A DNA stretch of 57,083 nt from Thermotogota bacterium. Lineage in GTDB: Bacteria; Thermotogota; Thermotogae; Petrotogales; Petrotogaceae. The translations under genes and the position numbers were made by a program. Location of the stretch: NCBI GenBank assembly GCA_051748045.1, contig JBNJGY010000005.1, forward strand, positions 1-57,083, given 5' to 3'. Shown here in pieces: positions 28,869 to 34,721 of this stretch. Numbering within the stretch: position 1 is the first letter of the stretch; each line of letters opens with the position of its first letter. Below the pieces are notes generated by a model. The model was not told the DNA's origin, ran no database searches, and saw only the letters and a list, made by a program, of their open reading frames with translations.

Positions 28869-30272
28869 TTATACATTTTTTCCCTTTTGAATATGAAATA
28901 TGGATACAATCATTCTAGCAATTTGAACTAAAACATCGATTATTAAAAGAACTGTTAAGTCTGGAACATATAGTAACATAATTTTTAAATCAACACCAAT
29001 TGCTAAAATATTATTTAATATAAAAGGTATACCGAATATCAAAAATAAAAATACAATAAGTGATTTTATACCTTCGTTTATCCATTTCTTTTTTGTTTTT
29101 TTAGATTTTGCAATTTTTACAGTATCCCAAATATCTTTAAGAGTTAAAAACAAAATCAATATCGAAACTATTCTTAGAGCCCAATTAGATGGAAAATGGT
29201 TGTATTCTTTTTCATCTTGAACATATGAAAAAAGATTATCGTTTAAATTTTTAAAAGCTCCAACAAAGTTCATAGCTAAATGGTTCTTATTTGCAATATA
29301 CATATAAGCACTATCTTCTTCTGGAAATAAAGCAACATGAGAACTAAATGTAGCTACAGCTCCACTATGTTCTACAATTTCAACTCCATTCTCATTTCTT
29401 ACGTTCCAACCCATTGCATAACCGCTATCTTCAGTTATTTCTCTCATCTCTTCTATACCATTTAGTGATAAAATATTACCTTTTGGATTAAGTAAAAAAT
29501 CAACATATTCGTTCATATCTTCTAAATTACTCAAAATAAACCCTGAAGGTATATCATACAAAGGTACTCTTTGTTTCATTCTGAAAGAAAATCCAAATAT
29601 ACTTGTATAGCCATGTACATCTTTTTCTCTTATTTCTTCTATATCAGCTGTTGTATTTGTCATATTTAAAGGTTCAAATATATTTTTTCTCATATATTCT
29701 GCATAAGATTCTTTTGTTACTTCTTCAATCAACAAACCTAAAATATTATAATTATCGTTCAAGTAGTAAAATTCTTCTCCTCTGTCAGTAACAGCTTTCA
29801 TAGAAGATAGCTCTCTTATTCTTTCTTCAATTGTTGAATCAAAATCAGAGCTTCTTACCTGATTTTTTCTGGACAAACCACTTTTTTGAACCAATATATC
29901 TCTAACAGTTATTCTTTCGCTAAGATCCTTGTCTGCAACTTCAAAGTAAGGAATATAATTTTGAACAGGATCGTCCAATTCAACAAGCCCTTTTTCTACT
30001 AGTTGCATAACAGCTAAAGCAGTAAAAGATTTTGAAACAGAACCTATAAACATTGGGTCAGTTGATGACAAATCATCGCCTTCTCCATTTTTACCAAGAG
30101 CGTTTAAGAAAACAACTTCTCCATCTTCTACAATACTTGCTGCTATTCCAGGAAAACTGGCTTCATTCATATGTTCTTCTAACAAAGAACTGATTTCTTC
30201 ATTGTTTACTACAGCAAAAACAAACTGAAAAGATAAAACCATCAAAACAAGCAATACTAAAATTTTTTTCAT
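28869..30272 (-). CDS. serine hydrolase (class C beta-lactamase/peptidase S12 family) with C-terminal TM helices
   Basis: GSVSKSF (SxxK), YLN and HSG motifs; signal peptide. Confidence 0.88.
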   Translation of the reverse strand: MKKILVLLVLMVLSFQFVFAVVNNEEISSLLEEHMNEASFPGIAASIVEDGEVVFLNALGKNGEGDDLSSTDPMFIGSVSKSFTALAVMQLVEKGLVELDDPVQNYIPYFEVADKDLSERITVRDILVQKSGLSRKNQVRSSDFDSTIEERIRELSSMKAVTDRGEEFYYLNDNYNILGLLIEEVTKESYAEYMRKNIFEPLNMTNTTADIEEIREKDVHGYTSIFGFSFRMKQRVPLYDIPSGFILSNLEDMNEYVDFLLNPKGNILSLNGIEEMREITEDSGYAMGWNVRNENGVEIVEHSGAVATFSSHVALFPEEDSAYMYIANKNHLAMNFVGAFKNLNDNLFSYVQDEKEYNHFPSNWALRIVSILILFLTLKDIWDTVKIAKSKKTKKKWINEGIKSLIVFLFLIFGIPFILNNILAIGVDLKIMLLYVPDLTVLLIIDVLVQIARMIVSIFHIQKGKNV

Positions 30273-30583: not shown

Positions 30584-31696
30584 ATGCTTCAAGATTTTAT
30601 TCAAGCTTTCTTTTTAGTTTTCATAGCTGAAATGGGAGATAAAAGTCAAATACTTGCTATGGCATTTGCAACGAAATTCCCAGTAAAAAAAGTAATGATA
30701 GGCGTATTTGCAGGTGCTTTATTAAACCATGGATTAGCTGTACTATTGGGAAATTTTATTCAAGATTATATTCCCATAACGACCTTGCAAATTGTGGCTG
30801 GATTTGCATTTGTTTTATTTGCTTTATGGTCACTAAAACCAGAAGACGATGAAGACGAAGAAACAGATAAAAAAATGAAGTTCGGTCCCATACTAACTGT
30901 AGCAATAGCTTATTTTTTGGGAGAACTTGGAGACAAAACACAGCTCACAGCTATAGCTTTGTCAGCAAACAGTCAATTCCCATGGTTAATATTAACAGGA
31001 ACAGTACTCGGAATGACTACAACAAGTGGAATTGGAGTTTTTATTGGTAAAAAACTCGGAGACAGAATCCCAGAGTTCACTATAAGAATAGTTGCTGGAG
31101 CCATATTTATGTTCTTTGGAATATTAAAACTATTTCAGTCTCTACCAGAAAGATTTATTACAGCACCATATTTAATAACATTCTTTGGAGTAGTAGGAAT
31201 AATCTCTTTCTTCTTAGTTAACAGCTCAATAAAACAAAGAAAAGAAGGAAAGAAAACCTTACTACAGAAAAAGGCAAAAGAACTATACGATTATTACCAC
31301 AAAATGGATGAAGAAGCAGATAAACTTTGTTTAGGACTAGACATATGTAAATATTGCCAGGGAAATGAATGTGTTGTTGGTCAGATAAAAAACATAGTAA
31401 AAAGTGGATTGGAAGAGGATTATGTAAGAACATTTTCTACAAAAACACTAAACCTTGAAACACTAAACAAAAACTTCGATAGACAAAAAGTCATTCAAAG
31501 CCTTAAAAACACCGTACATTCAATAAAAGCCATTAAAAAAATCCAAGAAAAAGACAACATACACAATATAAGAAAAAATTTAGAATTAATACTTTTTGGA
31601 AAATGCATAAAAAAATTTGAAAACTGGGAAAATTACAAACAAAAATTATTGGAAATAGACAGAATAACAGCAGAAAAAATCATAAAAAACAAATAA
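30584..31696 (+). CDS. TMEM165/GDT1 (UPF0016) Ca2+/Mn2+ transporter with C-terminal Cys-containing extension
   Basis: Duplicated EMGDKSQ and ELGDKTQ motifs. Confidence 0.88.
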   Translation: MLQDFIQAFFLVFIAEMGDKSQILAMAFATKFPVKKVMIGVFAGALLNHGLAVLLGNFIQDYIPITTLQIVAGFAFVLFALWSLKPEDDEDEETDKKMKFGPILTVAIAYFLGELGDKTQLTAIALSANSQFPWLILTGTVLGMTTTSGIGVFIGKKLGDRIPEFTIRIVAGAIFMFFGILKLFQSLPERFITAPYLITFFGVVGIISFFLVNSSIKQRKEGKKTLLQKKAKELYDYYHKMDEEADKLCLGLDICKYCQGNECVVGQIKNIVKSGLEEDYVRTFSTKTLNLETLNKNFDRQKVIQSLKNTVHSIKAIKKIQEKDNIHNIRKNLELILFGKCIKKFENWENYKQKLLEIDRITAEKIIKNK

Positions 31697-31772: not shown

Positions 31773-32126
31773 TTAAAAATATTCTTTAAATATCTCTATT
31801 CCTTTTGTATCAAATTCGGTGTTATCACCAATATTTGTGTTTTTCCATTCATTGAATTTATGAGTTACTTCATCTCCAAGTTTTTTAGAACTCATATCCC
31901 CAAATGCATTCCAAATTTTTTCAGCGATTTCTTCTTCTTTTTTAGTTAAATATTTCTTGTAAGTTGTATCTTTTGAGTTTGGTGGGGCTACTACAACCCA
32001 TCTTTTATCTTGTTCTGGTTGAAAAGTGTCTTCAATTAATTCAAAATTTAGTTTATTTGTATAAAAATCTATTGCTTCATCATAATCTTTTACAACTGAT
32101 GCAATGTGGGCTATTGATTGTCTCAT
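31773..32126 (-). pseudogene. chimeric remnant: VOC/glyoxalase N-half fused to a Panacea(DUF4065/SocA)-like C-terminus
   Basis: The first ~54 aa are typical VOC (HIASVVKDYDEAIDFY...KRWVVVAPP). The rest (EIAEKIWNAFGDMSSKKL..VTH..EWKNT) resembles a Panacea tail. Confidence 0.6.
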
Positions 32127-32138
32127 TTTTATCCCTCC

Positions 32139-34538
32139 TTAAAATCCAAAGTATAAGTTATAATCTTGGTTTATTAAAGATTGTGTGTACCTTATTTTGA
32201 ATACCCCCATTGGAGTGTAAAACCCAACAGCTCCTCCAACGACAAAATCAAAGTCTTGTGCTGATATATCTTCTTTTTTATCTATCAGTTTTCCTGTTTC
32301 AAAAATAACTTCTAGATTTATTATATTGTATAGATTTTGACTAATTGATACAGAATCAAATATTTGTCCTTTTGCTACGTCCATACCCTGATAAGATTTT
32401 AAATGGTTTTCAAAGTTGTATTTATCTTGTAATTCTAGAGGTGTATCCATGTCCATATATTTGTTTCTGAATAAGTTGGATACAGTTAAACCAAAATCAA
32501 AATCTAATTTAGCTAAATTAGCATATCCATAATAAGGATAGAAATTATCATAATCATAATTAAAACCTACTTTCATGGCATTTACTGAGCTTAATATTCC
32601 TATTCCATCTGAACTATTAAAGTTGAGGTTTAATCTATAATAATTATCTGGAACTATGTTTAATTCGTTTTTGTCAGTTGAGCTATCAAAAAAGAACTCA
32701 TTTGTTACTGAAGCTGTTATTTTTTCCGTTAGATATGTTGTTTGATTTGTTTTTATATAATTCCTTTTTAACTCAGAAACCTTTTCGTCTTTTGGGATAT
32801 ATTCTGTATAATATCCACCTTCTAGATCATTTCTTTTTGTAAAAAAAATGTTTGTTGGTATTTCAGCTTTTATATATGTAGGAAAATATTTATTAAACGA
32901 ATATCCTCCATGTAAATTAATCATAGTTCCAAAGGTGTTGTAGTAATGCAATGAAACTCTTGACTCGAATATATCTTGAAGTATATTCTCCAAAATATTA
33001 GAAGTGCTTTTAAAAAAACTTTCTCCTTCTTGAACATAAACCGTGATTATTAACTCTTCTTCTTTATATTCTGGGATTAATAGTATTTCTGAAAAACTGT
33101 TCAAGTTTTTAAGCCTTGTTTCTATGTTTTTGATTTTTGTAGCCTTGTAAACTTCGCCTTCTTTTAAATCTATCAACCATTTCAAATAGTTTAAATTAGT
33201 TTTTGAATATCCTTTATATTCTACTTTATCTATTGTTTTTCCATTGAATTTATCATAATCTAACCCATCTTTCAATACAGATTCAGAATTTCCTTCTTTT
33301 GGCATGTAAGATAATATGTTCGAAAATATTTTATTTTCGTATCTTGGTTCTCTTGCTTTGTAGTCAGTGTTTATTAATTCTATTGTTTTTTCTAATGCTT
33401 TCTCTGAATCAACTTTTATGTCTGGTTCTGTACCAGCTATTAAGTTAACAGTTCCATCGGGATTCAGACCTAATATAGACGGAGTTCTCAAAACAAGGTT
33501 TGTGTTTGGTAGTTTGAAAAATATTGGGTTTAACCCTATACCATCTCCACCAGTTTTTTCACCAACTAAAGTGGCAAAATTCGTGTTTTTTGCAAAAGAA
33601 GCAAATGCTTCTGTTGATGAATAAACCCCATTATCCACCAGAAGAAATATATTACCCTCATAATTTAAAGAGTCTTCTGGGGATACTCCTGTTTTGAATT
33701 TCATTGGAGCCATATAATCTACAGTCAATAATTGTTCCGGGGTGTGTGGAAGGCTAAGTACTTCACTTCTGTCTGCTCTCATCAAAGTGTCAACATATGG
33801 AAGATGAATGTTTATAAAATCGACAGCTTCTTTTCCTGATCTGTTGAATATATAATAATCCACTGATAAATAAGCTTTTGTTAATTTAGATACTATATAA
33901 TCTTGCCAATATTTTACAGCTCCACCACCATTTCCTCTGACATCAATTATTATATTTTCATAATCTTTTACTTCTTTTAAAAAAGATACAACTTTTTCCT
34001 CATCAGCTAAATAGTGTGCATATCCAATACTATTTATTTTTAAATAAGCAATTTTATCCTTTTCTATAATTTTGGTTTCTACATTGTTTGGATCCAACTC
34101 TTTTCTTCCTGTTAAATATTTATTTTCTATTATTGATTCTAAATATTTATATGTTTCTAATGATTCCTCATTGAATATTTCTTCAGAAAAATAGTCAAAA
34201 TAGTTCATAGAGCCACTTGAGAATGTGTTAGATAACTCATAATACCAAGATGGATGAATTAAATTGGTGTGTCCGTTTCTAAACCATCTCATGTAGTTAT
34301 TTATTAAGTTATAATACTCTAAATCTGTCATATCTTCACTTATTTCTTTAAAATACTCCTCTGAGATTTTCTCGAAAGACTCTTTTGTCACTCCCTCGAT
34401 AAAATCGAAATAAACATAATTATCTTCCATAAAGTTTATAAGTATTTTAAAATCAGCTCTTTTATCTTTATATGTGAATTTTGAACTAAAAGATATCAGC
34501 GTTACTAATAATAAAACAACCACCAAAAATTTCTTCAT
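32139..34538 (-). CDS. S41 family peptidase fused to POTRA and an Omp85-like beta-barrel
   Basis: Signal peptide; IIDVRGNGGG, YSSTEAF, LVGEKTGG and GTEPD S41 motifs; IDKVEYKGYSKTN...RLKNLNSFSEI POTRA-like; amphipathic strands ending YNLYFGF. Confidence 0.75.
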   Translation of the reverse strand: MKKFLVVVLLLVTLISFSSKFTYKDKRADFKILINFMEDNYVYFDFIEGVTKESFEKISEEYFKEISEDMTDLEYYNLINNYMRWFRNGHTNLIHPSWYYELSNTFSSGSMNYFDYFSEEIFNEESLETYKYLESIIENKYLTGRKELDPNNVETKIIEKDKIAYLKINSIGYAHYLADEEKVVSFLKEVKDYENIIIDVRGNGGGAVKYWQDYIVSKLTKAYLSVDYYIFNRSGKEAVDFINIHLPYVDTLMRADRSEVLSLPHTPEQLLTVDYMAPMKFKTGVSPEDSLNYEGNIFLLVDNGVYSSTEAFASFAKNTNFATLVGEKTGGDGIGLNPIFFKLPNTNLVLRTPSILGLNPDGTVNLIAGTEPDIKVDSEKALEKTIELINTDYKAREPRYENKIFSNILSYMPKEGNSESVLKDGLDYDKFNGKTIDKVEYKGYSKTNLNYLKWLIDLKEGEVYKATKIKNIETRLKNLNSFSEILLIPEYKEEELIITVYVQEGESFFKSTSNILENILQDIFESRVSLHYYNTFGTMINLHGGYSFNKYFPTYIKAEIPTNIFFTKRNDLEGGYYTEYIPKDEKVSELKRNYIKTNQTTYLTEKITASVTNEFFFDSSTDKNELNIVPDNYYRLNLNFNSSDGIGILSSVNAMKVGFNYDYDNFYPYYGYANLAKLDFDFGLTVSNLFRNKYMDMDTPLELQDKYNFENHLKSYQGMDVAKGQIFDSVSISQNLYNIINLEVIFETGKLIDKKEDISAQDFDFVVGGAVGFYTPMGVFKIRYTQSLINQDYNLYFGF

Positions 34539-34721
34539 TGCAATCACCATCCCATATATTTTTCACTTATATTATATATAATAAGATGTCTTTTTGAAAA
34601 AACTTTCTGATGAAATGCAAATAATGAGAATGAAAAGTCTAGATAAAAACACTACACTAATACACCACCCTTTCGAAAAAATGTATAATCTTGAAGATTT
34701 CAAAAAATGAGGAGGAGAAAT

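Follow-up and report, generated by a model that had tools for sequence, protein, structure and literature searches.

A rare fusion of a tricorn/CPAF-like S41 peptidase domain with a single POTRA domain and a predicted Omp85-type barrel in Thermotogota

Introduction

The protein described here resembles, by its domain order, the type Vd proteins PlpD and FplA, which combine in one polypeptide a hydrolase at the N-terminus, a linker, exactly one POTRA domain and a C-terminal Omp85 barrel. The succession of an enzyme, one POTRA and an Omp85 barrel is the order that defined type Vd, and a 2019 review defines the type by its patatin-like lipase passengers, all the passengers that it describes being lipases (PMC6555100). 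In 2024 the patatin domain of PlpD was reported to remain periplasmic, as a homodimer, contrary to the earlier type Vd model (PMC11116518). Here we analyse a gene with the same domain order, in which the enzyme is an S41 serine peptidase instead of a patatin-like lipase and the host is a toga-bearing member of the Thermotogota. The gene occupies positions 32139..34550 of the minus strand in a 57,083-nucleotide stretch (the window; contig JBNJGY010000005.1) of a draft genome of 158 contigs (GCA_051748045.1). Because the defining patatin passenger is absent, the protein is not a member of type Vd.

Other enzymes carried by Omp85 barrels were catalogued by Heinz and Lithgow in 2014, who distinguished ten Omp85/TpsB subfamilies, among them the enzyme-Omp85 fusions 'Metallo' and 'WD40-like', and proposed a role in periplasmic quality control for the 'Metallo' group (PMC4104836). 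The main text of that survey contains neither 'S41' nor 'peptidase', and it describes the Thermotogae as often encoding BamA only (PMC4104836). Like the 'Metallo' proteins, the protein of the window has a barrel that carries a hydrolase, theirs being a metallophosphatase and this one an S41 peptidase. A literature search, which included Omp85 in combination with tricorn, found no account of an Omp85 plus peptidase S41 architecture. Hanging an enzyme on an Omp85 barrel is thus a known principle, of which the S41 protease version is new, and from its sequence and predicted structure we read the S41-POTRA-barrel protein as a rare, so far undescribed Omp85 subfamily.

Results

Domain organization of the protein

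The gene is an open frame of 803 codons and a stop, with no internal stops. G+C content is about 29% around the gene and about 25-33% in the window, so that open frames of this length are not expected to arise there by chance. Translation probably starts at the second ATG, at position 34538 (Met5 of the frame), to give a product of 799 residues, because a GGTGA ribosome-binding-like site lies 5 nucleotides ahead of this ATG and the database entry for the same protein, found by a word-index search of 5.8 billion proteins, has 799 residues. Residue numbers in this text refer to the 803-residue frame, and all features of the gene lie on the minus strand.

The N-terminal hydrophobic segment, residues 1 to about 23 (MKKFLVVVLLLVTLISFSS; 34482..34550), reads as a signal sequence and is a helix (2-20) in the model. 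No lipobox Cys was found in it, and cleavage would be expected near residue 23. It is followed by the S41 peptidase module (residues 24-395; 33366..34481), in which His94 belongs to an N-terminal helical part and Ser311 to the catalytic core. Next come a 43-residue linker (396-438; 33237..33365), predicted with pLDDT values of about 55-75 in 10-residue blocks, and the single POTRA domain (439-509; 33024..33236), which begins with TIDKVEYKGYSK at residue 439. An amphipathic helix conserved across the family (516-528 in the model; 32967..33005) separates the POTRA from the predicted Omp85-type β-barrel (531-803; 32142..32960). The full-length AlphaFold model, built on an alignment of 38 sequences, had a pLDDT of 82.8 and a pTM of 0.77.

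Pfam recognized Peptidase_S41 at residues 166-380 (E 1.4e-23; 83.7 bits against a cut-off of 24) and POTRA at 439-509 (E 4.7e-6; 27.7 bits against a cut-off of 21.3), and the genome scan gave identical coordinates for the POTRA. The S41 motifs DVRGNGGG (203-210), YSSTE (310-314) and GEKTGG (330-335) are all present in the translation, as are the POTRA segment and the terminal YNLYFGF, which had been quoted in an earlier reading of the gene made from its letters alone (the sequence-only reading). That reading had proposed a signal peptide, a complete S41 peptidase, a single POTRA and a short, diverged Omp85 barrel with a terminal Phe, arranged as in PlpD, and its account of the domains agrees with our results on every point. 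To it we add the probable tricorn/CPAF rather than CtpA/Prc type of the protease, the loss of a conserved Glu in this lineage and the likely start at Met5.

The POTRA-barrel region

The region expected to fold as POTRA and barrel (residues 430-803) was modelled separately from 19 sequences, with a pLDDT of 92.8 and a pTM of 0.85. The model consists of a POTRA of β-α-α-β-β order (439-507), the helix 516-528 and a barrel (531-802), so the POTRA and barrel foreseen in the sequence-only reading were both obtained; it had also anticipated 16 strands, a number to which we return in the Discussion. In a Foldseek search with the model all 50 of the matches listed were TamA or BamA chains. By VIA superposition the best agreement was with Pseudomonas aeruginosa TamA (8us1; Z 25.4, root-mean-square deviation 3.7 Å, 351 of 374 residues), with Sam50 at Z 23.9 and Escherichia coli BamA at Z 22.3. 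Barrel-only structures of TamA and BamA aligned over 273-282 residues at 3.0-3.2 Å, for example 8us4 (TamA; Z 20.6, 273 residues, 3.1 Å) and 6qgw (BamA; Z 20.3, 279 residues, 3.0 Å). A full-length PlpD-type chain was absent among the structure matches listed for this model, and the likeness to PlpD is drawn from domain order.

Sequence profiles of the family pointed in the same direction. Compared with the Protein Data Bank, they matched Fusobacterium nucleatum BamA at E about 1e-17 and TamA at E 2e-9 to 1e-5, and the nearest ESM-Atlas clusters among the matches listed were mostly annotated as Omp85. Three homologues of the same architecture (P0016, P0018 and P0021) passed the Pfam Omp85 cut-off. 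Membership of the Omp85 superfamily is based on the predicted fold and on transitive homology.

Omp85 proteins have a loop 6 motif of the (V/I)RG(F/Y) type and an acidic xxDxG motif on a later strand. In the model a long loop (residues 700-727; 32370..32453) takes the place of loop 6, and five strands come after it, as after loop 6 in Omp85 barrels. Pro704 and Tyr720 of this loop were invariant in nine of nine sequences. Tyr720 aligns with the Tyr of 'NSLRGY' in F. nucleatum BamA. The (V/I)RG(F/Y) of BamA corresponds to LKSY in the window protein, the Arg position being variable in the family. In the profile alignment, 'FETGK' was paired with 'FADAG'. The last residue, Phe803, is aromatic as in a β-signal. 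A terminal Phe, Tyr or Trp was found in 17 of the 18 family sequences that reach the end, the exception being P0031, which has Ser.

The similarity to TamA and BamA thus extends over the whole POTRA-barrel region, which superposes end to end, and in sequence profiles over loop 6 and the C-terminal half of the barrel. The protein differs from them in having one POTRA, where they have three or five, in the loop-6 Arg, which is not conserved in its family, in the extra helix 516-528 ahead of strand 1, and in scoring far below the NCBIfam TamA cut-off. The genome encodes one canonical BamA as a separate gene (an open reading frame of 747 residues), and the barrel of the window protein is a distant relative of it (hhalign probability 78%, E 1.8e-5). 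BamA or TamA proper was ruled out by the single POTRA, by the TamA score (18.3 bits, cut-off 625) and by this low hhalign probability.

The peptidase domain

VIA superposition of residues 22-399 gave the highest scores with two structural-genomics S41 proteins (4ghn, Z 22.3; 4l8k, Z 21.9), followed by an S41 protease of Bacteroides fragilis (8vcb, Z 20.3), CPAF (Z 19.0), IRBP modules (Z about 18) and CtpA-type enzymes (Z about 17). The B. fragilis protein, Q5LIA5, is a serine protease candidate that emerged from competitive activity-based profiling with fluorophosphonate probes (10.1101/2025.01.15.633241).

Two residues were invariant in all 38 aligned sequences: His94 (codon 34269..34271), the probable general base, and Ser311 (codon 33618..33620), the probable nucleophile, which stands at the N-terminus of a helix (311-323 by DSSP). 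Position Ser+25 is occupied by Asp (Asp336) in 37 of the 38. In CtpA/Prc enzymes we take this position to be that of the catalytic Lys, and a PDZ domain to belong to the same type. Pfam gave no PDZ match on the protein, and the NCBIfam prc, Ctp and CPAF models matched only below threshold, prc and Ctp far under their cut-offs. The Asp at Ser+25, the lack of a PDZ match and the low prc and Ctp scores rule out the CtpA/Prc Ser-Lys type. Weak Tricorn_C1 matches were found in homologues, over the His-bearing helical part. Because of these matches, the invariant His94 and Ser311, and the Asp at Ser+25, we provisionally assign the protease on sequence grounds to the tricorn/CPAF-like S41 enzymes, not to the classical tail-specific proteases.

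With the tricorn-core and CPAF peptidases the domain shares the fold (Z 19-22), an invariant His located in the helical part and an invariant core Ser. It differs from them in being fused to an outer-membrane barrel and in missing a conserved Glu. In tricorn the Glu of the triad presumably lies at Ser+58. CPAF has a water-mediated triad of His105, Ser499 and Glu558, the Glu lying at Ser+59 (PMC8787135). In 34 of the 38 sequences Glu371, within a conserved Asn-Glu-Glu, is found at a spacing from the Ser that matches CPAF, and this Glu is probably the acid of the triad, an equivalence drawn from spacing and fold and not from residue-level superposition. In the window protein residues 369-371 (33438..33446) are Asn-Leu-Ile: the two Glu positions read LI here, and FY in P0003 and LI in L006, its two closest relatives. 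The probable triad acid is thus absent in this lineage. A nearby Glu375, which is specific to the window's genus, could stand in for it. The DxRxNxGG loop and Asp336 are also retained in the window protein.

Stand-alone proteins of about 530 residues from Clostridia, such as Caloramator, Caldanaerobacter and Thermosediminibacter, make up most of the protease's relatives, and judged by these the S41-barrel fusion is a rare branch within a broader S41 group. In relatives of 916-943 residues an insert of some 100 residues, for which no Pfam name was obtained and which the window protein lacks, separates the helical part from the core. The 916-residue orthologue retains the Asn-Glu-Glu.

Distribution of the fusion

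Among the 151 genomes of the phylum that we surveyed, the full S41-POTRA-barrel architecture is intact in five, from two genera of one family: two of the three genomes of the window's genus, its own counted, and all three of the other genus. The word-index search of 5.8 billion proteins found an 801-residue relative with 76% identity, and a family-profile search of the same proteins found ten full-length members of 791-942 residues, one of them labelled as coming from a Firmicutes metagenome-assembled genome. Exhaustive comparison of residues 430-803 with 1.84 billion representatives returned 13 proteins at E up to 1e-3. Apart from the query there were 12, of which six, representing six 50%-identity clusters, carry S41 together with the POTRA-barrel. 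A copy with 89% identity, truncated by the end of its contig, occurs in a metagenome-assembled genome titled 'uncultured Thermotogaceae bacterium'. The close relatives are 76-89% identical along their full length, with no sign of decay. In 80 metagenome loci encoding related S41 proteins, one of 84 S41 reading frames carried the POTRA-barrel, a 943-residue gene on a 175-kb contig. The S41-Omp85 fusion is real, a conserved single gene, yet rare.

A sister family with a C45 hydrolase

The same POTRA-barrel module was found in four further genomes of the survey (family-profile E 1e-43 to 1e-47). There it belongs to proteins of about 1000 residues that contain a C45 autoproteolytic acyltransferase/hydrolase domain, TPR repeats, one POTRA and a diverged barrel (loci L026, 1-2715; L028, 1-2688; L029, 1-2694; L027, 1495-4170). 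Pfam AAT was matched in all four of these frames and POTRA in three of the four. NCBIfam C45_proenzyme was above its cut-off in all three sister-type proteins scanned. The type also occurs in metagenomes (proteins P0019 and P0025). Like the S41 form, the C45-TPR-POTRA-barrel form appears to be undescribed.

A quick maximum-likelihood tree of 21 modules with two BamA outgroups, in which several branches are long, placed the S41-type, C45-type and short forms together opposite the outgroups (SH-aLRT 95) and joined the two Thermotogota S41 genera (98). The short forms are two enzyme-free relatives of the module: P0015 (450 residues), with a short N-terminus, and P0020 (588 residues), with TPR repeats. 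P0015 sits among the S41-type modules in the tree, which suggests that it either lost its enzyme domain or represents an ancestral short form.

Genomic neighbourhood

By its sequence context the protease-barrel gene stands alone. In the window it has a divergent ABC transporter pair on one side and, on the other, an open reading frame of 117 residues (31773-32126, minus strand) that lies 13 nucleotides downstream. In this chimeric frame the initial 50 residues of a glyoxalase/VOC domain are followed by the C-terminal half of an antitoxin domain of the SocA/Panacea kind, and it is probably a remnant of a rearrangement. A promoter-like site is present upstream of the gene (34600-34571), such sites being no commoner in the region than in shuffled sequence.

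The gene's neighbours in the other genus are a membrane protein gene on one side and a large repeat-protein gene on the other (L007, 3545-4930; L009, 3-1397). The repeat protein, cut by the end of the locus, is built of units of about 95 residues with the motif 'NRAP..SIPDQ...DPDGD.L.Y' and looks like a cadherin-like surface repeat protein. On the metagenome contig MutS2 comes before the fusion gene and an alpha/beta hydrolase after it.

Two further genes of the window had unusual C-terminal parts. At 28869-30272 (minus strand), 2 kb away, is a serine hydrolase related to β-lactamases and penicillin-binding proteins (Pfam E 1e-52). It has a signal peptide, and its C-terminus is extended by a long hydrophobic stretch of about 130 residues; it is a further envelope hydrolase whose membrane anchor is unusual. 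At 30584-31696 (plus strand) is a GDT1/UPF0016 cation transporter whose C-terminus bears an additional soluble region of about 160 residues, in which a Cys-rich stretch (CLGLDICKYCQGNEC) occurs and for which there was no Pfam match.

Discussion

The reading that we favour, with moderate confidence, is that of an outer-membrane (toga) Omp85 protein with a periplasmic extension, in which one POTRA and a tricorn/CPAF-type S41 peptidase are tethered at the toga. The protein would be exported by Sec. The host's single canonical BamA would then recognize the C-terminal Phe and insert the barrel into lipid patches of the toga. In Thermotoga maritima cryo-tomography and proteomics describe the toga as arrays of barrel proteins with lipid patches that are thought to house BamA (PMC10160955). 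By analogy with the patatin domain of PlpD, barrel and POTRA would hold the protease on the periplasmic face, where it would cleave peptides or unfolded envelope proteins near the toga. It might trim incoming peptides ahead of uptake, or remove unassembled outer-membrane proteins caught by the POTRA and the edge of the barrel. In the window's genus, where the conserved Glu is missing, catalysis would rely on the Ser-His pair. The periplasm is the more likely location, rather than the cell surface, because POTRA domains have so far been found solely in the periplasm (PMC11116518) and because the enzyme domain of PlpD stays there.

Several observations weigh against this reading. Pfam Omp85 (PF01103) had no match on the protein at E up to 1, residues 510-803 had no Pfam match of any kind, and no NCBIfam Omp85 model reached its cut-off. 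We did not weigh these missing matches against an Omp85 barrel, because fold and homologues indicate Omp85. DSSP counted 15 strand runs instead of 16, one of them a run of 18 residues (570-587) with a central Gly-Gly. Because the superposition on 16-strand barrels is nearly complete, we think that the barrel is likely to have 16 strands. The conserved Glu is replaced by Ile or Tyr in all three sequences of the window's genus, and peptidase activity may be weak or lost without it. With its 43 residues the linker could thread a barrel. No conserved partner gene that would point to a substrate was seen in the neighbourhoods of the three lineages compared. Finally, a 99%-complete genome of the window's genus is without the gene, which is therefore dispensable. 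When the same-genus genome G030 was searched at the DNA level for the region of synteny, short matches to ABC transporters were all that came up.

The sequence-only reading had gone further and suggested that the S41 domain might be the passenger of a type Vd-like autotransporter. In such a protein, barrel and POTRA would move the protease across the toga, and the displayed or released enzyme would digest external proteins for a peptide-fermenting host. We regard this as doubtful. The domain order is the one that defined type Vd (PMC6555100), the linker could span the barrel, the extracellular loops of the 430-803 model are short, and the C45 proteins provide a second hydrolase on the same module, as expected for a general export cassette. 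Yet nothing in the sequence gives a sign of export or cleavage, the type Vd passengers described in the 2019 review are without exception lipases (PMC6555100), and PlpD itself keeps its enzyme domain in the periplasm, its Fusobacterium homologue being undetected on the surface (PMC11116518). We consider somewhat less likely still a more general proposal: that the POTRA-barrel is a cassette specific to diderm Terrabacteria, those with a toga among them, and was combined on at least two occasions with different hydrolases (S41; C45 with TPR) as a self-contained outer-membrane device. Such a device would serve quality control, as a single-chain counterpart of BAM plus DegP/BepA in which the Omp85 edge and the POTRA capture unassembled barrels for the tethered protease, or would be a true exporter of enzymes, and in the latter case type V secretion would extend to the Thermotogota and to protease passengers.

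It is improbable, in our judgement, that the S41 domain of this lineage is a binding module without protease activity, like the S41-fold retinoid-binding IRBP, and the whole protein an outer-membrane receptor or scaffold. The change of Asn-Glu-Glu to Asn-Leu-Ile or Asn-Phe-Tyr throughout the genus, at a site where most aligned sequences keep the Glu, and the presence of IRBP modules among the structural matches would fit such a role. Against it, His94, Ser311, the DxRxNxGG loop and Asp336 are all retained and the two close relatives show no decay. Moreover, Glu371 is identified as the triad acid by its spacing (the CPAF and tricorn values), and the genus-specific Glu375 could replace it. The last alternative, that an assembly or gene-calling error joined two genes, we hold to be practically nil: the frame is continuous, and the artefact is refuted by homologues of 26-89% identity that share the single-gene architecture, from four other genomes and from metagenomes assembled independently. 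The C-terminal region also models as a barrel, and the homologues keep the fusion as one gene, as the sequence-only reading would have it.

Taken as a toga-tethered, periplasmic peptidase, the protein bears on a superfamily whose members are universal outer-membrane insertases and translocases. Few of these carry enzymes, and PlpD, the best studied of those that do, has just had its topology overturned. The S41 and C45 versions on one module offer an independent natural test of whether such proteins are anchors for periplasmic enzymes or export devices. For the Thermotogota, the gene provides some members of the phylum with a second Omp85 protein, against the 2014 picture of a single BamA, and lengthens the short list of toga barrel proteins by one candidate.

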